Shown here: piece after piece, positions 994 through 18,362 of the stretch | Position numbering within the stretch: the stretch's first letter is position 1 | Layout of the letters: the number at the start of each line of letters is the position of its first letter | From: an uncultured Anaerolineae bacterium | GTDB lineage: Bacteria > Chloroflexota > Anaerolineae > Anaerolineales > Villigracilaceae | Assembly: GCA_903882765.1 (NCBI GenBank) | Contig: CAIRYE010000026.1 | Span: 1 to 27,238 of the forward strand | Length of the DNA stretch: 27,238 nt | Direction: 5' to 3' | Position numbers and translations under genes: made by a program | Notes under the pieces: generated by a model | Databases searched by the model: none | Told to the model about the DNA's origin: nothing | The model's input: the letters and a program-made list of their open reading frames with translations, nothing else

Positions 994-2481
994 TTATCTC
1001 AAGTAGAGATGGTTATAGGTTCGCAAGCGTTGAATGAGATCGTCACTAAAACTATCAAGGGTTGTTCGCCAAGCCCAATACCCACCCACCTTACCCGGAA
1101 AATTCATCCGGGCATCGGTATCCAATCCCAATAAATCCTGCAATGGCGCGATCGCGAATAAGGCAACTGAACTCCATATCGATCTGACCATTACGTCTGA
1201 TACATCCGGGTTGGATGAGTTGTAATATTGGTGGAAAAAATTTACTTCGTGCTCAGGTGCGGTTTTGTACCACCCCACCACGGTATCGTTATCGTGCGAA
1301 CCAGTATAAACAACACAATTCTGCGGATAGAGATGAGGTAAGAAGGGGTTATCGGGACCTGAAAAGCCAAATTGTAATATCTTCATTCCGGGTAATCGGA
1401 ACAAATCGCGGAGCTCGAAGACATCTGGAGTTATTTCGCCAAGGTCTTCCGCGATGATCGGCAGATCACCTAAAGCGGCTCGGATAGCTTCAAATAATTT
1501 GGAACCAGGACCCTTTACCCACTGCCCATTGATAGCGGTCGGCTCACCAAATGGAATTTCCCAATACCCGGCAAAACCTCGGAAATGGTCGATACGAACA
1601 ATATCATAAATACTTAGAGATGCCCTAATGCGGTTGATCCACCAAGAGTAGCCGGTCTTCTCATGGATCTCCCATTTGTATAGTGGGTTACCCCATAATT
1701 GGCCGGTTTCTGAAAAATAATCTGGCGGTACTCCCGCCACAACGGTGGGAAAACCATTTTTATCAAGATGGAAGAGATCGGGGTTTCCCCAGGTATCCGC
1801 CGAATCCATGGCGACAAAGATCGGAATATCCCCGATGACTTGAACGCCCTTTTGATTGGCGTATTGTTTGATTTCTGTCCATTGTTTGAAAAACAAAAAT
1901 TGGGAATATTTTATTTCCAAAACGGTTTCTTGCTGCTCGGCTTCTACTTTTGAAAGGGTAGTAACATCCCGAAATCGATACAATTCAGCCCATTCGGTCC
2001 AGGCACTTCCGCCGTTCAACCCCTTTATCGTCATAAAAAGGCTGTACTCATCCAACCAGGCTTGGTTTTCACGACAAAATGCATTGAAACTGCTTTTTAT
2101 TGGCGAAGAGTTTTCCAACTCATTGAAATGACCGAAGGACCGTTTTAACAATGCTGGTTTCCAAAGGAAGATCTTCCCAAAATCCACTCGGTTCTCATCC
2201 CAATCAGGCATATCCGAGAGATCTTCTATCGTTAATAAACCATCCTGAAGCAGTAGTTGCGGACTGATCAAATAGGGATTGCCCGCAAAGGCGGAAAAGC
2301 ATTGATATGGTGAATCACCATACCCGGTTGGTCCTAGTGGAAGGACCTGCCATAATTTGCAACCTGCCGCCTCCAAAGAATCAATAAATGAATAGGCTTC
2401 GGGACCCAGATCACCAATTCCATAGGGACTCGCAAAGCTCGTTGGGTGCATTAATATTCCAGAACTTCGTTTGAATGACAT
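994..2481 (-). CDS. malQ: 4-alpha-glucanotransferase (amylomaltase, GH77)
   Basis: RSSGILMHPTS, WQVLPLGP, GDIPIFV, catalytic RIDHFRGF, IAEDLG and GSHDND motifs; 495 aa. Confidence 0.97.
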   Translation of the reverse strand: MSFKRSSGILMHPTSFASPYGIGDLGPEAYSFIDSLEAAGCKLWQVLPLGPTGYGDSPYQCFSAFAGNPYLISPQLLLQDGLLTIEDLSDMPDWDENRVDFGKIFLWKPALLKRSFGHFNELENSSPIKSSFNAFCRENQAWLDEYSLFMTIKGLNGGSAWTEWAELYRFRDVTTLSKVEAEQQETVLEIKYSQFLFFKQWTEIKQYANQKGVQVIGDIPIFVAMDSADTWGNPDLFHLDKNGFPTVVAGVPPDYFSETGQLWGNPLYKWEIHEKTGYSWWINRIRASLSIYDIVRIDHFRGFAGYWEIPFGEPTAINGQWVKGPGSKLFEAIRAALGDLPIIAEDLGEITPDVFELRDLFRLPGMKILQFGFSGPDNPFLPHLYPQNCVVYTGSHDNDTVVGWYKTAPEHEVNFFHQYYNSSNPDVSDVMVRSIWSSVALFAIAPLQDLLGLDTDARMNFPGKVGGYWAWRTTLDSFSDDLIQRLRTYNHLYLR

Positions 2482-6941: not shown

Positions 6942-7286
6942 TCATTTTTTCATTCCAATGTATAAAGTGTTCCCCTCTTGATATACCGGATACGAAGGTA
7001 TATCTTTTATTGCCGGCATGGTTAAGGCTTTACCGGAACGGATATCAAACTCCGCGCCATGCCTTGGGCATACAATGCAGTGATCCTCTATTAGCCCATT
7101 ATCCAGCGGTCCATCATCGTGTGAGCAGATATCGCCAATGGCATACAATTTCTCTTTCACTTTCAACACAATAATAGCCTGTTCATTGATCGTAAGAAAT
7201 AATCTTTCGGTGAGATCAACCCCATCCATATCCAATTCAAAAATATCATAAATTGATTCGTCTATGGGGTTCTGTTTATTTTCCAA
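6942..7286 (-). CDS. Rieske [2Fe-2S] ferredoxin (suf-associated)
   Basis: CSH...CPRH Rieske ligands; TTG start with GAGGT SD overlapping the sufU stop. Confidence 0.92.
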   Translation of the reverse strand: MENKQNPIDESIYDIFELDMDGVDLTERLFLTINEQAIIVLKVKEKLYAIGDICSHDDGPLDNGLIEDHCIVCPRHGAEFDIRSGKALTMPAIKDIPSYPVYQEGNTLYIGMKK

Positions 7287-7294
7287 ACTCTACC

Positions 7295-7693
7295 TCATTC
7301 ATCTAAATCGATCTCATCCGCTGAGGAGAGACCATAAATTCCAGCTTTTAATACTTTAAGTGACAATAATGCGCATTTGAGTCGAACTGGACCAGGTTCG
7401 ATACCGATCAGCTCGATGATGCTGTCTTTGGTCATTTTTTTTACTTCTTCTACATCTTTGTTGATCACATAGTCAAGTAAAATGTCCGCGGTTGCTTGGG
7501 ATATAGAACAACCGTGACCATCAAATTTTGCGTCCGAAATACGATTTTCAGAATCCGTTAGCAAGGTTATTTCAATATGATCTCCGCATAACGGGTTATT
7601 ATCCTCAAATCTTACATTGTAATTTTCGAGTGTACCCCGATGCGAGGGATTGTTGTAGTGTTCAATGATAACTTCGCGATAGAGATCGTCCAC
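7295..7693 (-). CDS. sufU: U-type Fe-S protein (SufU-like sulfur acceptor, short form)
   Basis: NPLCGD (C36, D38), GHGCSISQA (C62), RLKCA (C107); GTG start; follows sufS. Confidence 0.9.
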   Translation of the reverse strand: MDDLYREVIIEHYNNPSHRGTLENYNVRFEDNNPLCGDHIEITLLTDSENRISDAKFDGHGCSISQATADILLDYVINKDVEEVKKMTKDSIIELIGIEPGPVRLKCALLSLKVLKAGIYGLSSADEIDLDE

Positions 7694-7704
7694 AGTGTTT
7701 TGCC

Positions 7705-8928
7705 TTATTTAAAATATTCTTTTACTTTGTACAAGCCATCCACAAACGCGTCCACCTCTTGGGTTGTGTTGTATAGGTAGAAACTAGCTCGCGTTGTTGC
7801 GGGAATTGCGAATAACTCGTGTAAAGGTTGGGCGCAATGGTGCCCTGCCCGAACAGCGATTCCGCTCCTATCGAGTATCTGAGCAACATCGTGGGGGTGG
7901 ATTTTCCCGAAGGTAAAAGCTATTACCCCACCTTTCAGTTTCGGGTTGGAATTTAGAACCTTGACATCCGGCACGTCCATGATCTTGCCTAAGGCATATC
8001 GCAAAATTACGTTCTCATGCCGATCAATATTTTCCATGCCGACCGATTCTAGGTAGTCGATCGCCGCGCCAAACCCAACAGCTTCCGCGATTGCGGGTGT
8101 ACCCGCTTCAAACTTATAAGGAAGATCATTGGCTGAGAAACCGCTAAATTTTACTTCTTTGATCATGTCACCACCCCCAAGGAATGGCGGCATTTTCTTG
8201 AGTAAATCGAATTTACCGTAGAGTACACCAATACCTGTTGGGCCTACCATTTTGTGGGCAGAGAACGCCAAAAAATCAGCATCAAGATCTTGCACATCTA
8301 CCGGAAAATGAGGGACAGCCTGTGCGCCATCTACTAATGTGATCGCGCCAGCGGCATGCGCCAGTTGTATCAATTCCTTGGCTGGGTTTATACTACCGAG
8401 CACATTCGACATATAGGTAAATGACACCAGTTTCGGTTCTCGAACAAGTAATTGCTTGTAGTCTTCTATATCTAACAAGCCTTCTGGTGTAATTTTTATG
8501 TACTCGATCGAAAAACCTAGCTGACTAGATAACATCTGCCAAGGAACAATATTGCTATGGTGTTCCATCTGTGTAAGCAAGATCAAATCATCCGCTTTTA
8601 GGTTTTGTCGCCCCCAAGTATTTGCAACCAAGTTAATCGATTCAGTAGTGTTACGGGTGTAGATGACCTGCTTGCTTTTTTCAGAGTTAATGAATTTCGC
8701 TATTTTGGTCCTCGCCGCTTCATATTTTTCGGTTGCTTCTTCAGCTAATTTATGAACACCCCGATGAATATTCGCGTTTGAGTTTCGGTAATAGTCATTC
8801 ATCGATTCGATCACCGAGAGCGGTTTTTGCGACGACGCGGCAGAATCCAGGTAGATCAATTTTTGTCCTGGGTGTACCTCGCGATTTAGAATGGGAAAAT
8901 CTTCCCTGATCAAAGCTACATCAAACAT
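7705..8928 (-). CDS. sufS: Group II cysteine desulfurase
   Basis: YLDSAASSQKP, SAHKM PLP-lysine, HPHDVA and RAGHHCAQP group II motif. Confidence 0.97.
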   Translation of the reverse strand: MFDVALIREDFPILNREVHPGQKLIYLDSAASSQKPLSVIESMNDYYRNSNANIHRGVHKLAEEATEKYEAARTKIAKFINSEKSKQVIYTRNTTESINLVANTWGRQNLKADDLILLTQMEHHSNIVPWQMLSSQLGFSIEYIKITPEGLLDIEDYKQLLVREPKLVSFTYMSNVLGSINPAKELIQLAHAAGAITLVDGAQAVPHFPVDVQDLDADFLAFSAHKMVGPTGIGVLYGKFDLLKKMPPFLGGGDMIKEVKFSGFSANDLPYKFEAGTPAIAEAVGFGAAIDYLESVGMENIDRHENVILRYALGKIMDVPDVKVLNSNPKLKGGVIAFTFGKIHPHDVAQILDRSGIAVRAGHHCAQPLHELFAIPATTRASFYLYNTTQEVDAFVDGLYKVKEYFK

Positions 8929-8934
8929 AAAGTT

Positions 8935-9303
8935 CTATTCATCCTCAACAATTTTTTTGATCAATGGAACCTTTTTACCAGTACCATATGGCCGCACCTG
9001 CTCAGATTGCATCGGAAACCAAAGAATATGGTCGGGAACCATCCAACCGTCGGTCAGAAATACGTTGGACCGAAATTGAACCGCGGCCATTTTATTGTTA
9101 TCGATTTGAACAATAATTCCTTTAAGCCAACCGCGCACTCGTTCTGTACCTTTTTCATGGTCACAAAAAGCATCGACAGCATCGCCCACTTCGTATTTCT
9201 GATCATTGCTGGGCGACCTCATGAAGGCATAGTCTTTTCCGCTGCCCCGAGTACTTTTTCGGGATACACCTGCGGCTTGCGTTGTTGGCTTAATTTGTTT
9301 CAT
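8935..9303 (-). CDS. Hypothetical protein, possible SH3/Tudor-like beta-barrel, inside the suf operon
   Basis: 122 aa; AGAGG SD 5 nt upstream; 18 nt after the sufD stop and 6 nt before the sufS start, co-directional. Confidence 0.85.
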   Translation of the reverse strand: MKQIKPTTQAAGVSRKSTRGSGKDYAFMRSPSNDQKYEVGDAVDAFCDHEKGTERVRGWLKGIIVQIDNNKMAAVQFRSNVFLTDGWMVPDHILWFPMQSEQVRPYGTGKKVPLIKKIVEDE

Positions 9304-9321
9304 ACAACCTCTTTTGAATTG

Positions 9322-10647
9322 TTATTTCGTCATTTTATTAATAATAGCTTCTTTAAAGCGATCTCGTACACCTTGAAATGGAATTCTCTGCATGATCGGG
9401 TCGAAAAATCCTTCAACGACCAATTTTTCAGCTTCCGCTTGTGGAATTCCACGAGACTTTAGGTAAAAGATAGGTTCAGCCTCTAATTTTCCAACGGTAG
9501 CGCCGTGGGTACATCGTACATCATCCGCAAGGATCTCTAACCCGGGAATCGAATCCGCCCGAGCATGCTCGCTGAGGATCAGGTTCCGATTTGCTTGGTA
9601 GCCATCACTTTGCTGTGCATCAGGAGCAACATAGATCATCCCTTGCCATACAGAACGGGAGTGATCTAACAAAGCTCCTTTGAACAGCAAGTCGCTGGTG
9701 GTTTTTCCGGCGAAATGGTTTTGTTGGGTATCGTGATCAATGTGCTGGTTATTGTCTGTGATATAAAAACCAGACATTCTCCCCGTTGCTCCCACGCCGA
9801 CCAGATCAATGTCGGAGAAGTTCTTCGTTAATCGTGAGCCAAGTGAACCAATGATCCAATCAAGATTAGCCCCTTCTTCTACTCGAGAACGTTCGTGCGA
9901 AAAATTCCACACATTTTTGCCCCAAGATTGTAATTCAACAAATCGTAATTGTGCACCTTTTGACAGGTTAATTTCAATATTATTCGAGGAAAGTATCTGA
10001 TCCTCTGACTCCTTTGGAGAGGCTGATTCGTGAACAAAGGTGAGGGAGGCGTTTTCTTCTAGGTACACCAAAATATTCGATATAAAGGCAAGCCCATTAC
10101 CACCCGCCCAGAAAATACTATGCAATGGCTTTTCTACCTTAACATTTTTTGGCACATAAATAAACACACCGGTTTGGGCTAATGAGGCAGATAAGGCGGC
10201 AAAAATACTTTCCTCTGGGTTGACCAAAGTCCCAAGAATTTTCTTGAGTTGGTCCGGATATTTGGTTTCGGCTGTTTTGATGTCGGTGAAAATAACACCG
10301 CTATTTTTTATATCTTCATCGAGGGCGATCGTGGTTGAAAAAGGCGTTGTGATAATTTGCCCGCCAAATTTGTCATCCACCATCGGCTCTAATATTTCCT
10401 TTGGAATTTGCGGCAAAGCAATTTCATCCAAAGTTGTGAATATTTTGAAAGAGTCTATTGGAAAACTTTTCAGATCAGTTCTGCGCCAAGCTTCTACAGA
10501 AGTATCTGGAAGAGTTGTTTTGTTGAGAACATCAAATGCCGTTTTCCTGACCTTGTTTTCTGCATTATTGAGAATTTGAGATTCAGAAAAATGGAAACTT
10601 TTGGGTCCCGTTTGGCGTATTGTTGGAGATAGTTTTAGGTTAGTCAT
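9322..10647 (-). CDS. sufD: Fe-S assembly protein SufD
   Basis: EAWRRTDL, beta-helix repeats, ADSIPGLEILADDVRCTHGATVG, FYLKSRGI; ATG one nt after the sufB stop. Confidence 0.95.
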   Translation of the reverse strand: MTNLKLSPTIRQTGPKSFHFSESQILNNAENKVRKTAFDVLNKTTLPDTSVEAWRRTDLKSFPIDSFKIFTTLDEIALPQIPKEILEPMVDDKFGGQIITTPFSTTIALDEDIKNSGVIFTDIKTAETKYPDQLKKILGTLVNPEESIFAALSASLAQTGVFIYVPKNVKVEKPLHSIFWAGGNGLAFISNILVYLEENASLTFVHESASPKESEDQILSSNNIEINLSKGAQLRFVELQSWGKNVWNFSHERSRVEEGANLDWIIGSLGSRLTKNFSDIDLVGVGATGRMSGFYITDNNQHIDHDTQQNHFAGKTTSDLLFKGALLDHSRSVWQGMIYVAPDAQQSDGYQANRNLILSEHARADSIPGLEILADDVRCTHGATVGKLEAEPIFYLKSRGIPQAEAEKLVVEGFFDPIMQRIPFQGVRDRFKEAIINKMTK

Positions 10648-10648
10648 A

Positions 10649-12058
10649 TTACCCGATCGATCCTTCCATCTGCAATTGGATCAGTCTGTTCATTTCAACC
10701 GCGTATTCCATCGGCAATTCCTTGACCAACGGCTCAATGAAACCTGAAACGACCATCGTGGTAGCTTCTTCTTGTGTCAAACCGCGGCTCATTAGGTAAA
10801 ACAGTTGTTCTTCACCCACTTTTGAAACCGAGGCTTCGTGGCCGATGGTTACATCCGTTTCGTCGATCTCAATATATGGATAGGTATCCGAACGGGATTT
10901 TGGATCTAACAAAAGCGCATCACAAACTACGCTAGATTTTGAATTTTTCGCGCCGTTGTACACCTTCAATAGTCCGCGGAAGGAAGATCGACCACCGCCC
11001 TTGGAAATGGACTTAGAGACAACTTTGCTTGAGGTGTTGGGGGCAAAATGGACCATTTTTGTGCCAGCATCCTGAACTTGGCCGGGACCAGCGAATGCCA
11101 TCGAAAGCATCTCGCCATGCGCGCCAGGTTCCATCAGGTAGCAGGATGGGTACTTCATCGTAACTTTCGACCCAAGATTCGCGTCAACCCACTCGTGGGT
11201 ACCGTTTTCATACACCATAGCGCGCTGGGTTACCAAGTTGTATACATTGGTAGACCAATTTTGTATGGTTGAATAACGTGAGCGAGCCCCTTTTTTAACA
11301 ATGATCTCGATCACACCGCTATGAAATGAGTTGGCGCTATAGGTTGGCGCGGTACACCCTTCAACATAATGGACATGCGCGCCTTCTTCTACAATGATCA
11401 TGGTTCGCTCAAACTGCCCAACATTTGGAGTATTTAAGCGGAAATAGGCTTGCAACGGCAGATCCACTTTTACCCCTTTAGGGACATAAACGAATGAGCC
11501 ACCAGACCAAACAGCGCTGTTTAATGCCGCGAATTTATTATCTTCAATAGGTACGACTTTCCCAAAATATTCCCTGAACAAATCAGGGTATTTTTTTAAT
11601 CCATCTTCGATCGACAAGAAGATGACACCTTGTTTTTCAAGATGCTCCAAAACGGAGTGATACACCATCTCCGATTCATATTGCGCCCCTACACCAGCCA
11701 GGAATTTTCGCTCGGCTTCGGGTACGCCTAACCGATCAAAGGTCTTTTTAATATCATCGGGAACATCATCCCAAGACCGTTCACTTTTTTCGGTGGGCTT
11801 AACATAATAATAAATTTCGTCAAAATTAAGCTCTTCAAGTGTTGGGCCCCATTTTGGCATTGGCCTCGAAAGATAATGCTTCAAGGCTTTTAACCGAAAC
11901 TCTAACATCCATTCCGGTTCCTGCTTCATTCGGGAAATGTTACGTACTACTTCTTCGCTTAAACCGCGTTGTGATTTGAACACATAGTTATCATCTCGGT
12001 CATAAAAACCGTATTTGTATTCGCCCAGATCTTCTAAAATTTTCTCGTCTTCACTCAT
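10649..12058 (-). CDS. sufB: Fe-S assembly scaffold SufB
   Basis: [49 protein letters not shown]; ATG at 12058 preferred (ORF open to TTG 12073). Confidence 0.97.
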
Positions 12059-12085
12059 AATTGTTTGATCCAATAAGTAGGTAGA

Positions 12086-12856
12086 TTATGCAACTTCTTC
12101 ATATTTTTCACGAACCCAGTCATAACCCATCTCTTCAAGACGAAGAGCGAGATCAGGTCCACCGCTCTCAACGATAATTCCGTTCATCATAATATGAACA
12201 AATTGAGGCTTAATATAATTGAGGAGCCTTTGGTAATGGGTGATCACTAAAACACCAAGATCAGGACCATTTAGAGCGTTAACGCCCTCTGAAACGATTC
12301 GCAGAGCATCAATATCCAAGCCTGAATCTGTTTCATCGAGGATGGCGATCTCAGGTTTCAACGTTGCCATCTGTAAAATTTCAGCGCGCTTTTTCTCTCC
12401 GCCCGAAAAACCGTCGTTCAAATACCGGCCGGCAAATGCTGGGTCCATCTTTAACAGAGCCATTTTTTCTTTGAGCATGGTCCTAAAATCAGGGATTGAA
12501 ATTCCTTTATCCTCGGGATTGGCGGCTCTTCTGCGTGAATTGATAGCGGTACGAAGGAAGTTCGCCACGGTTACACCTGGAATGGATACCGGGTACTGAA
12601 ACGCGAGGAAAATTCCTGCTCTTGAGCGTTCGTCTGCTTCAAGATCAAGAATGTTCTTGCCTTTAAAGATGATCTCTCCACCAGTTACGGTGTAACCGGG
12701 ATGTCCCATAAGGGTGTACGCTAATGTGGATTTGCCTGTTCCGTTCGGCCCCATGATTGCGTGCACTTCCCCTTGATTTATGGTTAAATTTAATCCTTTT
12801 AGGATCTCTTTACCTTCAACACTAACCTTGAGATTTTTTATTTCCAAAGCTGACAT
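12086..12856 (-). CDS. sufC: Fe-S assembly ABC ATPase SufC
   Basis: GPNGTGKST Walker [37 protein letters not shown]; GGAG SD 7 nt upstream. Confidence 0.97.
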
Positions 12857-12861
12857 AATTA

Positions 12862-12913
12862 AACTCCAATTTGCGATTTTCAGTGATGTACGAGATTATA
12901 GCAAATCGGAGTT
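12862..12913. repeat. 13-bp inverted repeat with 26-nt spacer covering the sufC SD and promoter spacer
   Basis: AACTCCAATTTGC (12862-12874) and GCAAATCGGAGTT (12901-12913): 12/13 complementary, and the odd pair is G.U in the mRNA sense. Confidence 0.8.
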
Positions 12914-12923
12914 AATCTGTCAA
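12895..12923 (-). promoter_or_regulatory. Perfect consensus sigma70 promoter of the suf operon
   Basis: TTGACA (12923-12918), 17 nt, TATAAT (12900-12895) with TGn extension; AT-rich UP-like tract upstream. Confidence 0.9.
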
Positions 12924-12966: not shown

Positions 12967-14427
12967 TTAAAGTTTTCGAACATCATGAGAGCCGCTCTCA
13001 CGGATTCCAGCGGGGGTAATTTCGATAAACTCAGCGTTTTCTTGTAATTTCTTAATATTTTCGGCACCACCATAGCTTAGCCCAGATCGTAACCCGCCAA
13101 CCAACTGATGTAGCACCTCACCAACATTTCCGCGATACGGTACCACTGCTTCGACGCCTTCAGGAACGACCTTCATCCAATCTTCCTGGTCTTCTGCGCT
13201 CTCATCATTGTTCGACTCCACCATTTTACGCCCCATGGTTGCCGCCAACGAGGCCATACCTCGAACGACCTTCACCTTTTGTCCATCGCGAATCACCGGT
13301 GACCCTGGGGCCTCTTCCGTACCCGCAAACATACTGCCGATCATAATGCTTTCAGCCCCCGCGGCTAAGGCTTTAACAAGATCCCCCGCTTTTTGGATGC
13401 CGCCATCCGCAATTAAAGGAATATCTATTCCGGTATCGCGAATTCCCTCCGCGCTATCCATGATAGCTGTTAGTTGTGGAACGCCAAAACCAGTCACAAT
13501 TCGGGTAGTGCAGATCGACCCTGGGCCGATCCCCACCTTAATGGCGTTAGCGCCGGCAAGAGTAAGATCGCGCGCCCCTTCCCTCGATGCTACATTTCCA
13601 GCGATGATCTGCGCGTTCGGATGATTTGCTCTAAGGGTTCGTACCATATCGACGCAGTGGTCGGCGTGTCCATGAGCGATATCCAAAACCAACACGTCAA
13701 CACCCGCTTCTAACAGTGCTTCTGCGCGAGCGATCTCGCCTTTGCTTACTCCAATCGCCGCACCTACGCGCAATCTACCCTTTTCATCCAAAGCGGCGTT
13801 GGGGTTTCGTACCGGTTTTAGTACATCTTGCGCTGTAACCAATCCGCGAACTGTTCCATCGGGATTTAGAACCGGAATTTTTTCAATACGGTTTTCATAC
13901 AACAACCGCCTAGCCTCATCAACCGAGAAATTCGCTTGAAGTGTGACCAGCTTTTCCTTTTTGGTCATAACATCTTGAACAAGCAATTTCCCATTTGGCA
14001 CCAAATTAACATCCCGGGTGGTGATGATGCCGTTTACAAAACCGCCATCGTCTGTTACCACCAAACCGCCAACCTTATATTGTCGCATCAGCTCGATCGC
14101 TTTTTCAACGAGTTCGTTTGAATTAATACAATAGGGGTTTTCGACCATAACGCCTTGGGCACGCTTGACGAGTTTAATTTGTTTAACATGGTGCTCTATC
14201 GACATAAATCGATGGATAATGCCAATTCCGCCAGCGTTCGCCATGGCAATCGCCATCGAGGTTTCGGTTACAGTATCCATATTTGCGCTGAGAATCGGAA
14301 TGTTGATGCGAATTTTATCGGTTAAACGAGTGGAAGTATCCACTTGCTGCCTTGATGTAATGGATGATTTTTGCGGGATCAATAACACATCATCGAAGGT
14401 GAGCCCTTTATTTTCCCTGATTTTCAT
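12967..14427 (-). CDS. guaB: IMP dehydrogenase/GMP reductase family protein with CBS pair (pipelines would call it guaB; may be a GMP reductase, see findings)
   Basis: [15 protein letters not shown], two CBS motifs, [17 protein letters not shown] (C306), IADGG, PEGVE. Family assignment is secure; IMPDH versus GMPR is not. Confidence 0.85.
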
Positions 14428-15605: not shown

Positions 15606-18362
15606 ATGAACCCAGAAGAGAACATACCAACCAGCTATTCCAAATTTGACCCATCACATGATGTTTACCGATATCTCTCGAACCCACTTCAAAGCATTTT
15701 CGCTCCTCAAAATGTTGCTGTAATTGGCGCTACCGAAAAAGAAGGCAGTGTAGGCCGCACAATTTTGTGGAATTTGATCAGCAGCCCATTTGGCGGCGCT
15801 GTATTCCCCATCAATCCAAAACGCCCTAGCTTGCTTGGTATCAAAGCATATCCTAGCATCAAAGATGTTCCTGATCAGGTAGATCTCGCTGTGATCGTAA
15901 CCCCTTCGGCCAGTATCCCAGGAATCATTTCGGAGTGTGTGGAAGCCGGCGTAAAAGGAGCCATTGTTATTTCGGCTGGTTTCAAAGAAATTGGCGTTGT
16001 AGGTGTTGAACTTGAACGCCAGTTGTTAGAGAACGCCCGAAAAGGCAAGATGAGGATCATCGGACCAAACTGTTTGGGGGTAATGAACCCAGTGAGCGGC
16101 CTCAACGCCACTTTTGCGGCAGGTATGGCCCGTAAAGGCAATGTTGCCTTTATTAGCCAATCTGGCGCTCTTTGCACCGCCGTTTTAGATTGGTCCTTCA
16201 AAGAAAATGTTGGCTTTTCTGCTTTTGTATCCGTTGGTTCGATGTTGGATGTAGACTGGGGTGACCTGATCTATTATCTTGGCGATGACCCGCATACCGA
16301 AAGCATCGTGATCTATATGGAATCGATCGGAGACGCCCGTTCATTTCTATCAGCCGCTCGCGAAGTTGCGCTCAGCAAACCAATCATTGTTATTAAACCT
16401 GGTAGAACCGAAGGCGCTGCCCGTGCCGCCGCATCACACACCGGCTCATTAACTGGTTCCGATGAAGTGCTAGATGCTGCCTTCAAACGAGCCGGTGTTC
16501 TACGAGTTGAAAGCATCAGCGAAATATTCTCGATGGCGGAAGTGCTTGGCCGTCAACCTCGACCAAAGGGACCAAGACTAACCATCCTTACCAATGCGGG
16601 TGGTCCTGGCGTATTAGCGACAGATACCTTAATAACCAATGGAGGTGAGTTGGCGGAAGTGTCCCCAGAAACGATCGCCAAGCTGAATGAGATCTTGCCC
16701 TTCTCTTGGAGCCATAACAACCCGATCGATATCATTGGTGACGCGGACCCCCAACGGTATGCCAAATCGCTTGAAATTGCCGCTTCAGACCCGAACAGCG
16801 ATGGATTGCTTGTTATCCTTACCCCACAAGCAATGACAGACCCAACCGCCACGGCAGAAGCGCTTAAGTCTTACGCGAAAAGTTACGAAAAACCTATCCT
16901 CGCTTCTTGGTCTGGTGGTAAAGAAGTTGCCGCCGGAGAAGCTATTTTGAACAAAGCTGGAATTCCAACGTTTGAGTATCCTGATGATGCCGCGAAAGCA
17001 TTCACCTATATGTGGCAATCATCGTTCAATCTCAAGACCCTCTACGAAACTCCGAGCTACACCGAAGACGCAAACCATACTCCCGATAGAGACCTGGCGG
17101 CAAAGATCATTGACGATGTACGAAAATCAGGCCGAGACCTGCTAACCGAAGCTGAATCCAAGGATCTACTGAAGGCCTATGGTATTCCCACCACGGCAAT
17201 GTACATCGCCGCCACCGAAAAGGATGCCTGCGATAAATCTGAATTGTGCGGTTTCCCGGTCGTGCTCAAGCTCCATTCCGAAACGATCACCCACAAAACC
17301 GATGTTGGCGGCGTGAAATTAAATATTACCAATTGTGAGGAAGCCAAAAAAGCGTTCAATGAGATCAAAGAATCAGTTACCCGATTGAAGGGCGCGGAAC
17401 ACTTCCAAGGCGTTACTGTTCAGCCAATGATCAAATTAGAGGGTTACGAGTTGATCGTTGGCTCTTCTATTGATCCACAATTTGGTCCAGTGCTTTTATT
17501 TGGTACCGGAGGGCAGTTAGTAGAAGTCTTCAAGGACAGATCTCTTGGGCTTCCTCCGCTAAACACAACCTTGGCAAAGAGAATGATCGAACGTACCAAG
17601 ATCGCCAAAGCGCTCGCGGGTGTTCGTGGCCGCAAACCGGTTGATATGGATGAATTAGAGAAATTACTTGTTCGTTTTAGCCAATTGGTCGTTGAGCAAA
17701 GATGGATAAAAGAGATCGATATCAACCCATTGATCGCCTCACCGGATGGTTTATTAGCCCTCGATGGTCGAGTTGTCCTCTATGGATTAGATACAAAAGA
17801 AACCGATCTACCAAAACTCGCGATTCGACCTTACCCCAACCGCTATGTTGGCGAATGGAAAATGAAGAACGGTTCTGATGTAATGATCCGCCCCATCCGC
17901 GCCGAAGACGAGCAACTGATGATCAATTTCCACAAACACCTCTCGGATCGATCCGTGTATTTACGGTATCTGTCTCCGATGGTGCTTAGCGATCGAGTAA
18001 CCCATGAACGGTTGGCAAGAGTTTGCCATTGTGATTATGCTCGTGAGATCGCTCTTGTGGTGGAGACGGATATAGATGGCCAGAACAACATTATCGCGGT
18101 AGGTAGAATTAGCAAGCTAAAAGGGGAAGACGAAGAAGCCCGTATCAGCTTGCTGGTCAACGACAAATACCAAGGCCAAGGGATTGGTCTCGAACTAGTC
18201 AATCGGCTGATCAAAGCGGCGAGGCACGAAAAGATCAAGCGTATCATTTCGATCATGTCACAAGAGAATTCATCCATGCAGAGGCTTTGCCGGCGCGCTG
18301 GATTCTCATCGATCACCACAAATTCAAAAACAGGGATGATCGAAGCGTCATTATCGCTCTAA
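15606..18362 (+). CDS. ADP-forming acyl-CoA ligase (alpha-beta fusion) with C-terminal GNAT domain (Pat/PatZ-like architecture)
   Basis: CoA-binding VAVIGA, GPNCLG, SQSGAL, ASHTGSL (H278), [25 protein letters not shown] (H563), EIDINPL, GNAT IRPI and QGQGIG. Confidence 0.93.

Follow-up and report, generated by a model that had tools for sequence, protein, structure and literature searches.

The question raised by this locus is which way a guaB-like gene drives purine flux: from IMP to XMP, as an IMP dehydrogenase (IMPDH), or from GMP back to IMP, as a GMP reductase (GMPR). The gene lies on the minus strand of the window, a stretch of 27,238 nucleotides from an uncultured Anaerolineae bacterium (contig CAIRYE010000026.1), and a sequence-only reading had proposed that it encodes a CBS-domain GMPR resembling the kinetoplastid enzyme.

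Domain architecture and active-site signatures

The ORF opens with ATG and encodes a 486-residue protein with an IMPDH/GMPR TIM barrel and an inserted CBS pair (Table 1). The Pfam IMPDH model matches at 469 bits and the CBS model matches twice. The TIM barrel, Cys306 in GSICTT and the CBS pair are all features of IMPDH, but the same barrel, Cys loop and CBS pair are found in CBS-bearing GMPRs, so the architecture does not separate the two enzymes. Re-translation placed every motif quoted in the sequence-only reading at its residues (the V388/A392 motif, a flap without Arg-Tyr, DIAHGH, VKRAQ and the C-terminus), and the kinetoplastid counterparts that it named are correct: HMMER alignment to the T. 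brucei GMPR chains 6lk4 and 6jig gives DGQKVKIIRGMAG, DIAHGH, VKRAQ and a terminal RESGSHGVAKL.

Table 1. Features of the proposed GMPR gene and its flank, with coordinates in the window.
Feature	Position	Strand	Basis
CDS, 486 aa, proposed Bateman-domain GMP reductase	12967..14427	-	ORF and translation, Pfam, NCBI models
SANMDT, residues 47-52; Asn49 where IMPDH has Ala (SAAMDT)	14272..14289	-	alignment
VKRAQ, residues 87-91; Arg89 aligns with T. brucei GMPR Arg93	14155..14169	-	alignment
Bateman module (CBS pair), residues 92-205; ribose-binding aspartates D139 and D201 equivalent to T. brucei D149 and D211	13813..14154	-	Pfam and residue map
DIAHGH, residues 249-254, dinucleotide-site motif; Ile250 where IMPDH has Thr/Ser (DTAHGH, DSSHGH)	13666..13683	-	alignment
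GSICTT catalytic loop; Cys306, nucleophile forming E-XMP*; Thr308 of the Thr/Glu pair common to IMPDH and GMPR	13504..13521	-	alignment
KVVRGMAS, residues 386-393, substrate-base binding motif; Val388 for IMPDH Tyr, Ala392 for IMPDH Gly	13249..13272	-	alignment
Mobile flap, residues 394-419, acidic, without Arg-Tyr dyad	13171..13248	-	alignment
PEG, residues 422-424; Glu423 in the same column as T. brucei Glu428 and the E. coli GuaC Glu	13156..13164	-	alignment
C-terminus, last 11 residues; level with the end of T. brucei GMPR (RESGSHGVAKL)	12970..13002	-	alignment
Perfect sigma-70 consensus promoter, TTGACA-17-TATAAT with TG, between the gene's stop codon and sufC	12895..12923	-	

In IMPDH, an Arg-Tyr (RY) dyad on the mobile flap activates the water that hydrolyses the covalent intermediate E-XMP*, and this hydrolysis is the step that defines the enzyme. 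Every one of the 18 complete canonical IMPDHs from the same order has the dyad, and none of the 20 members of the query's clade does; within this clade the flap residue Arg400 is invariant. The lack of the dyad argues against the principal alternative, a genuine but atypical IMPDH that would dispense with the dyad, for example by way of a Thr308/Glu423 relay, and would feed GuaA where canonical GuaB has been lost. According to Hedstrom's group, a Thr/Glu proton relay is reportedly a second, slower route of water activation in IMPDH, and the shared catalytic core retains its Cys, Thr and Glu here, which favours this alternative. Cys306 and Thr308 are invariant in the alignment of the clade; the Glu of PEG shares its column with that of E. 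coli GuaC (Glu289; Glu431 in T. foetus IMPDH).

The substrate-base motif points towards GMPR. The Y-R-G-M-G-S of IMPDH (Tyr411 and Gly415 in human IMPDH2) is not matched, Val388 and Ala392 standing at the two positions. T. brucei GMPR, an enzyme with no IMP-to-XMP activity, has likewise lost the IMP-binding Tyr and Gly, and its authors blame the missing activity on the changes Tyr411 to Ile398 and Gly415 to Ala402 (Bessho 2016, PMC4701174); the shared replacement argues against an atypical IMPDH. Met391 and Ala392 align with Met401 and Ala402 of the T. brucei enzyme, which together with Glu428 contact the guanine base in its crystal structure (PMC7160140). The full set of Met401, Ala402, Glu428, Cys318 and Thr320 corresponds to Met391, Ala392, Glu423, Cys306 and Thr308 of the 486-residue protein.

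The Asn of SANMDT is common to T. brucei GMPR (ASNMDT) and E. coli GuaC (AANMDT), and the GuaC counterpart of DIAHGH is DVANGY. Signatures of the Ala392, Ile250 and Asn49 type are found in both of these independently proven GMPR lineages, while E. coli GuaB and the same-order canonical IMPDHs carry Tyr/Gly, Thr/Ser and Ala at those positions. We scored 120 aligned family members for the presence of RY on the flap, for Gly or Ala/Ser at query position 392 and for Thr/Ser/Cys or Ile/Val/Leu at position 250. The RY-less flap is combined with Ala/Ser and Ile/Val/Leu in 72, RY with Gly and Thr/Ser/Cys in 36, and 12 are mixed. Judged by this cross-tabulation, the combination of signatures is more than chance.

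The allosteric site was compared in the same way. Arg93 of T. brucei GMPR hydrogen-bonds allosteric GMP/GTP (PMC7160140), and the Bateman-site residues Arg93, Asp149 and Asp211 of that enzyme are matched by Arg89, Asp139 and Asp201. Both aspartates also occur in IMPDHs, so the match supports regulation and does not bear on reaction type. Since the canonical aspartates and the Arg89 hinge contact are kept, control by guanine versus adenine nucleotides is likely, by analogy with the T. brucei enzyme. The C-terminus of the same-order canonical IMPDH, ESHPHDV..ITKEAPNYQ, is unlike that of the 486-residue protein.

Relation to characterised enzymes

The GMPRs of T. brucei (6JL8, 6JIG, 6LK4) and Leishmania have the same barrel and CBS pair at 47-49% identity, and the T. 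brucei protein is collinear with ours from residue 7 of the query through to the end of both proteins. Trypanosomatid GMPRs have in common with it the sites of Tyr/Gly substitution, the lack of RY, the motifs DIAHGH, VKRAQ, IHRF/LHRF, xxNMDT and RESGSH..KL, the guanine contacts (M/A/E) and the Bateman ligand residues (R, D, D); both also belong to organisms without de novo purine synthesis. The 486-residue protein differs from the parasite enzymes in its flap, which is longer and more acidic, in Ser393, where they have Gly, and in ending with RKL instead of the AKL/SKL of a canonical PTS1.

Canonical GuaB (E. coli, T. maritima 1VRD and the same-order RY paralogue) shows the same fold and domain order at 42-46% identity and shares the GSICTT loop and the PEG Glu. 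Several traits of GuaB are missing from the query: the RY dyad, Tyr and Gly in YRGMGS, Thr/Ser in D[TS]xHG, and the tail ESHPH..EAPNY. The RY-less type, unlike canonical GuaB, is not linked to pur genes and is absent from most de novo-capable relatives. E. coli GuaC and human GMPR1/2 resemble the query in having Asn in xxNMDT, the catalytic Cys/Thr/Glu and no RY, and in them too the dinucleotide-site Asp is followed by a hydrophobic residue and G-M by a residue other than Gly. They have no CBS pair, a short flap and F-Y-G-M-S-S in place of V-R-G-M-A-S, with 35% identity over the barrel.

Mycobacterial GuaB1, an actinobacterial enzyme, initially passed for an IMPDH homologue in annotation and was later shown to be an NADPH-dependent CBS-GMPR regulated by ATP and GTP (PMC9790621, PMC13249884). 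It is likewise CBS-bearing and IMPDH-like, but its CBS sites are non-canonical and it has no flexible linker, whereas the 486-residue protein keeps the canonical aspartates. The query scored below cut-off with all three GuaB1 models (NF052358, 334.4 against 675 bits; TIGR01303, 297.1 against 562.75; NF005869, 338.3 against 549) and with all three GuaC models (TIGR01305, 212 against 492; NF003470, 219 against 397; NF003966, 205 against 344).

Two measures of overall similarity side with an atypical IMPDH. The protein narrowly passes TIGR01302, the NCBI equivalog model for IMPDH (511.5 bits, cut-off 481.5), and among PDB sequences T. maritima IMPDH ranks first (500 bits), with T. brucei GMPR at 441 bits. 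However, TIGR01302 is also passed by the Diplonema homologue of the euglenozoan GMPR (485.2 bits) and by other RY-less representatives, and it was dropped as non-discriminating. Whole-sequence similarity was likewise set aside as a criterion, given an IMPDH as top PDB match and near-equal identities to T. brucei GMPR (47%) and E. coli GuaB (46%). An HMM of the clade, compared with one of canonical Chloroflexi IMPDHs, scores higher by 144 to 171 bits on the T. brucei, T. cruzi and Leishmania GMPRs and by 36 bits on E. coli GuaC, and lower by 78 bits on E. coli GuaB.

Deep phylogeny is less decisive. A FastTree analysis of all columns splits the family cleanly into RY and RY-less proteins, with the query in the RY-less assemblage alongside the euglenozoan enzymes (split support 91). 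The maximum-likelihood tree (IQ-TREE), built without the flap columns and under a site-heterogeneous model, keeps the query outside an RY clade (SH-aLRT 93), within a paraphyletic RY-less grade and not next to the euglenozoan clade, and its deep backbone collapses. In these trees, which contained no GuaB1 sequence, the AU test did not reject grouping the query's type with RY-type IMPDHs (p = 0.54) or with Chloroflexi IMPDHs (p = 0.115). With this collapse and two non-significant tests, neither sisterhood to the kinetoplastid enzymes nor exclusion from an IMPDH-related origin can be claimed, and the permitted position as sister to the IMPDH clade counts in favour of an atypical IMPDH.

The sequence-only reading is therefore borne out in part. 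Resemblance to the kinetoplastid CBS-GMPR holds at V388/A392, at M391/A392/E423 and in the profile preference of the clade, but not in lineage placement: a ‘bacterial member of that lineage’, taken strictly, finds no backing in a tree that does not set the protein beside the euglenozoan clade. The identity of the query to the euglenozoan enzyme is 45-49%; other metagenomic proteins are about 60% identical to the Diplonema homologue.

Distribution across Anaerolineae genomes

In its own genome (94.8% complete), the 486-residue protein is the sole IMPDH-family gene; a second, canonical guaB, which the sequence-only reading had suggested looking for, is absent from this assembly. That reading had also held that a sole guaB-like gene in a genome with de novo GMP synthesis would refute a GMPR. 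The gene is indeed the only one, but searches of the same genome for purD, purC, purF and purM found none of them, and the refuting case does not arise. Three HGPRT matches, guaA, purA and purB are kept, and the host appears to be a purine salvager.

A survey of 41 genomes of the same order comprised 21 with purD and purC and 20 without; weak purD-like matches in G010 and G019 (136-137 bits) were left uncounted, as these two genomes lack purC too. Canonical IMPDH of the RY type is present in 20 of the 21 and in none of the 20, while the RY-less type occurs in 7 and 15, respectively. It substitutes for canonical IMPDH in just one of the 21 de novo-capable genomes, which argues against its being an IMPDH. 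The closed same-family genome G142 has the RY-less type only and lacks both purC and purD.

Across both surveys the RY-less type stands alongside canonical IMPDH in 26 genomes (7 + 19) from many families, the closed genome G036 included. Such coexistence is expected of paralogues with different jobs and again disfavours an atypical IMPDH, as does gene linkage: at least 27 genomes have canonical guaB and purC no more than about 13 kb apart, and no purC-positive genome with the RY-less gene has it that close.

Retention of guaA beside a sole family gene, seen here and in 15 of the 41 same-order genomes, would at first sight favour an IMPDH. We rejected the rule that a sole guaB-like gene plus guaA equals IMPDH, since guaA is kept in 40 of the 41 genomes and persists in some without any IMPDH-family gene, including the closed genomes G037 and G052.

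More widely, the RY-less type is found in 33 of 151 good Anaerolineae genomes, and 23 of the 82 purC-positive ones have no canonical IMPDH. Family f39 (four genomes, one in 5 contigs) has purC, purD and guaA with the RY-less protein as its only family member, and G021 and G134 resemble this pattern. RY-less CBS-bearing proteins make up about half of the 134 full-length representatives, clustered at 50% identity, that are nearest to the query; one of the representatives, P0220, was suspected of being a GuaB1 and rejected as such at 255 bits against the 675 cut-off. Further RY-less relatives occur in other bacteria, one Woesearchaeota MAG and several protists.

Proposed reaction and competing explanations

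Observed directly were the residues, the spread across genomes and the preference of the profile; from these we infer that the gene product is probably a Bateman-regulated GMP reductase, with NADPH as its probable cofactor. As in the established GMPR mechanism, Cys306 would attack C2 of GMP and ammonia would depart, helped by the Thr308/Glu423 pair, to leave the covalent E-XMP*, which hydride from NAD(P)H, probably NADPH, would reduce to IMP. With no Arg-Tyr dyad on its flap for activating water, the enzyme is expected to hydrolyse E-XMP* to XMP very poorly or not at all. In the cell, HGPRT would make GMP from guanine, or from xanthine via GuaA; the 486-residue enzyme would return GMP to IMP, from which PurA and PurB would then make AMP. 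Most likely, then, it turns salvaged guanine nucleotides back into IMP.

An atypical IMPDH remains the foremost competitor, and one that we judge unlikely. Family f39 speaks for it, having purC, purD and guaA with the RY-less type alone. Extended to the whole RY-less clade, the idea would be that of a working IMPDH in which an ‘atavistic’ activation of water replaces the dyad and supplies XMP to GuaA in Anaerolineae devoid of GuaB; this we find slightly harder to accept. Candidates for such a dyad-free supply could be f39 and the salvage-only genomes. If real, a dyad-free IMPDH would overturn the rule that the Arg-Tyr dyad defines IMPDH.

Another fate of E-XMP*, or a bifunctional protein, seems improbable. 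Examples would be GMPR in reverse (IMP + NH3 + NADP+ to GMP) or nucleotide sensing by the Bateman module. The purC-positive Anaerolineae without canonical IMPDH leave some guanylate route unaccounted for, the RY-less protein is the only family candidate in f39, and the Bateman ligand residues are conserved. However, guaA is retained there, which a direct route from IMP to GMP would render superfluous, and GMPRs are generally considered irreversible under physiological conditions. Across the clade, the whole catalytic set is also invariant, which argues for a working enzyme over a sensor.

A decaying or functionless paralogue is barely conceivable: the copy in one relative (G174) has an in-frame TAA, but the ORF is intact in the own genome and in 19 relatives, about 150 columns of the clade alignment, every catalytic residue included, are invariant down to 50% pairwise identity, and the tree largely follows genus, family and order.

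If the protein is a GMPR, a large group of CBS-bearing, dyad-less proteins is being misnamed ‘IMP dehydrogenase’ by annotation pipelines, and metabolic reconstructions, with the flux reversed, would wrongly credit their carriers with guanylate synthesis. The signatures offer a testable rule for separating the two reactions: presence of the RY dyad, Gly versus Ala/Ser after G-M, Thr/Ser versus Ile/Val after the dinucleotide-site Asp, and Ala versus Asn before M-D-T. In an environmentally common lineage, the enzyme would then accompany the disappearance of de novo purine synthesis, echoing the salvage-only trypanosomatids, and the kinetoplastid Bateman-domain GMPR, which the literature calls ‘unique’ and which is a candidate drug target, would turn out to have relatives broadly among prokaryotes.

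In the window, the gene is followed downstream by a suf operon and preceded by a CAP-LysM gene. No guaA or other purine gene was found beside it in the neighbourhoods read from three relatives, and beyond this absent guaBA/pur linkage the surroundings proved uninformative as a clue to function. Given the promoter between the stop codon and sufC, the downstream suf operon is probably a separate transcription unit.

Residue-level comparison with the trypanosomal enzyme

The 486-aa query comprises a single IMPDH/GMPR barrel (469 bits) into which two CBS domains are inserted (Pfam). Combined residue-level, profile-level and distribution evidence favours the view that it is probably a Bateman-domain GMP reductase (GMPR) that serves to convert guanine into adenine nucleotides in a member of the Anaerolineae that salvages its purines. 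The serious rival, an atypical IMPDH without the Arg-Tyr (RY) dyad of the mobile flap, is unlikely. The literature searched describes CBS-bearing GMPRs from trypanosomatids and Actinobacteria alone, and a query-type GMPR would have wider consequences for annotation.

Relatives in the query's 90%-identity cluster, many Chloroflexota/Anaerolineae proteins of 483–487 aa, are called ‘IMP dehydrogenase’ whenever their source gives a name. The only curated NCBI model that the query passes is TIGR01302 (‘IMP dehydrogenase’), narrowly (511.5 versus a cut-off of 481.5 bits), and it scores far under the cut-offs of the GuaB1 and GuaC models. The TIGR01302 pass is uninformative as evidence for an IMPDH, because a Diplonema homologue of euglenozoan GMPR also passes (485 bits).

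The sequence-only reading had proposed a CBS-domain GMPR akin to the kinetoplastid enzyme. The strings it quoted were all found at the residues it gave, and the kinetoplastid motifs it listed proved correct when the query was aligned with T. brucei GMPR (6lk4/6jig) by HMMER. This alignment (441 bits) is collinear through the last residue of both proteins, which have in common DGQKVK(V/I)(V/I)RGMA, DIAHGH, VKRAQ, (I/L)HRF, xxNMDT and RESGSH.V.KL. No IMP-to-XMP activity was detected for T. brucei GMPR, for which Tyr411→Ile398 and Gly415→Ala402 are implicated (Bessho et al., PMC4701174); I398 and A402 map to V388 and A392 of the query. The guanine base is held by Met401, Ala402 and Glu428, allosteric GMP/GTP is contacted by Arg93, and the canonical CBS sites are marked by Asp149/Asp211 (Imamura et al., PMC7160140). 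M401 and E428 map to M391 and E423, R93 to R89, and D149 and D211 to D139 and D201, while C318 and T320 map to C306 and T308.

Chloroflexi C-termini (-RKL, -KRL, -KKL, -RRL; relatives L032–L044) lie exactly at the position of the peroxisomal/glycosomal PTS1 of euglenozoan GMPRs (-AKL, -SKL, -AKM), and one substitution would yield a PTS1.

Two enzyme types and their phylogeny

Every IMPDH-family gene was extracted from the query's own genome and 40 same-order relatives. Canonical RY-type IMPDHs (GuaB) carry KEYRGMGS...(K/R)DRY...PEG, DTAHGH and the tail ESHPHDV..ITKEAPNYQ, whereas the query type carries K(V/I)VRGMAS, no RY, DIAHGH and the tail ESG.HDV..L. Three signatures, namely the dyad (present or absent), residue 392 (Gly or Ala/Ser) and residue 250 (Thr/Ser/Cys or Ile/Val/Leu), covary on cross-tabulation of 120 aligned family members (72 with the query combination, 36 with the IMPDH combination, 12 mixed). 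E. coli GuaC, an established GMPR from another lineage, agrees with the query at each signature position and at Asn49, while E. coli GuaB agrees with the canonical type. With HMMs built from the two Chloroflexi clades, the query-type minus canonical score was +144 to +171 bits for the T. brucei, T. cruzi and Leishmania GMPRs, +36 bits for GuaC, −78 bits for GuaB and positive for every RY-less representative.

A FastTree phylogeny of 134 sequences on all columns separated an RY half from an RY-less half (support 91), the latter holding many prokaryotic representatives alongside the query and the Diplonema homologue. A second tree (LG+C20) omitted motif and flap columns and included named GMPRs and E. 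coli GuaB/GuaC. RY-type IMPDHs still formed a near-clade without the query (SH-aLRT 93), and RY-less sequences formed a weakly supported grade. AU tests did not reject grouping the query clade with all RY-type IMPDHs (p = 0.54) or with Chloroflexi IMPDHs (delta lnL 54, p = 0.115). A special query–IMPDH link is thus neither established nor ruled out by the tree, which also gives no evidence of sisterhood to the parasite enzyme. Strict membership of the kinetoplastid lineage, as previously suggested, was not borne out: the euglenozoan clade is not adjacent to the query clade, and the sequences ~60% identical to the Diplonema protein, far nearer to it than the query, are metagenomic and protist.

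CBS-less family members also occur in the class, namely an RY-less form of 373 aa with KSYRGMAS and a short flap (L045/L047) in a genome without de novo synthesis, and ~341-codon matches in four closed f48-family genomes (G071, G109, G141, G172). Possible pseudogenes are a canonical guaB in two overlapping frames (L046; frameshift or sequencing error, 10-contig genome) and an RY-less gene with an in-frame TAA.

Distribution across Anaerolineae

De novo synthesis was scored by purD/purC in the 41 same-order genomes. Canonical IMPDH occurs in 20 of 21 genomes with these genes and 0 of 20 without; the query type occurs in 7 of 21 and 15 of 20, respectively. Its near-absence as sole copy in de novo-capable same-order genomes is consistent with a paralogue that has a separate role. 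Four further same-order genomes (one closed) have no IMPDH-family member, and one has a CBS-less RY-less form. HGPRT, a salvage enzyme, is present in 41/41 genomes and guaA in 40/41; guaA retention is thus no argument for XMP-making by the query type.

We then surveyed 151 class genomes (≥ 90% complete), searching each for purC, Pfam IMPDH and matches to the HMM of either clade. Canonical IMPDH alone was found in 56 (42 with purC, 14 without), both types in 19 (17, 2), the query type alone in 14 (5, 9) and neither in 62 (18, 44). Frequent coexistence with canonical IMPDH likewise agrees with such a separate role. Closed G142, of the query's family, has the query type only and lacks purC and purD.

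The dyad-less IMPDH alternative draws on family f39, whose four genomes carry purC, purD, guaA and an RY-less query-type protein as sole family member; G021 and G134 are similar, but are single and less complete genomes. From this gene content, some query-type members could oxidise IMP. Against this, closed G052 carries purC, purD and guaA yet lacks any IMPDH-family gene, so the class evidently tolerates or bypasses the absence of IMPDH. At E ≤ 1e-40 the family gene is absent from 55/151 class genomes, all within the ‘neither’ group and including G052, G094, G130, G161, G189 (f29), G106 and G138 (f43); at least 13 of the 55 retain purC. Such IMP makers either need exogenous guanine/xanthine or the class has an unrecognised XMP/GMP route.

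Anaerolineae canonical guaB lies inside or beside a pur cluster, with purD and purC within ~5–13 kb (G036, G022, G033, G025 and about 23 class-level genomes). By coordinates in both surveys, purC lies within ~13 kb of canonical guaB in at least 27 genomes and never within that distance of the query type. One closed genome holds canonical guaB, purD, purC, guaA and an RY-less paralogue within 28 kb.

Own genome and gene neighbourhood

The second, canonical guaB that the sequence-only reading advised seeking is lacking: the query is the sole IMPDH-family gene in its own genome assembly (94.8% complete). This assembly has guaA, purH, purA, three HGPRT matches and a purB split across two contig ends; purD and purC gave no match, and purF and purM only matches far under cut-offs. 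The purH (AICARFT/IMPCH) matches lie on the same strand in reversed domain order (model positions 78–311 precede 1–62), an arrangement that points either to two distinct genes or to a fault in the assembly. Recycling of the AICAR formed in histidine synthesis may be the reason that purH is retained.

Coordinates of features in the window and in surveyed genomes
Feature	Location	Strand	Remark
Query CDS	window 12967..14427	-	486 aa; intact ORF, ATG start
Query C-terminal tripeptide	window 12970-12978		
Perfect sigma-70 promoter	window 12923-12895	-	in 110-nt gap, query gene to sufC
Complete suf cluster	window 6942-12856	-	sufC, sufB, sufD, further genes; downstream of query gene
122-aa ORF	window 8935-9303		in suf cluster; no Pfam match
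Acyl-CoA synthetase-like/GNAT fusion	window 15606-18362	+	918 aa
purH matches, own genome	G000:C294:10-777 and 1579-1761		
guaB–pur region	G036:C1:829914-857495		closed genome
CBS-less RY-less gene	G039:C28:82961-83956		
Two-frame canonical guaB	G007:C3:1192837-1194239		
RY-less gene with TAA	G174:C257:19302-20729		

Neither guaA nor another purine gene lies alongside in the three query-type neighbourhoods read. The suf cluster, which also encodes a class-V aminotransferase (SufS-like), a NifU_N protein (SufU-like) and a Rieske ferredoxin, is predicted to be driven by the consensus promoter. A CAP-LysM gene lies 18 nt before the query gene. The fusion protein joins an ADP-forming acyl-CoA synthetase-like module (CoA-binding, succinyl-CoA-ligase-like, ATP-grasp_5) to a C-terminal GNAT domain, an arrangement typical of Pat-type protein lysine acetyltransferases, and the synteny of the fusion, CAP-LysM and RY-less genes is kept in a relative (L066).
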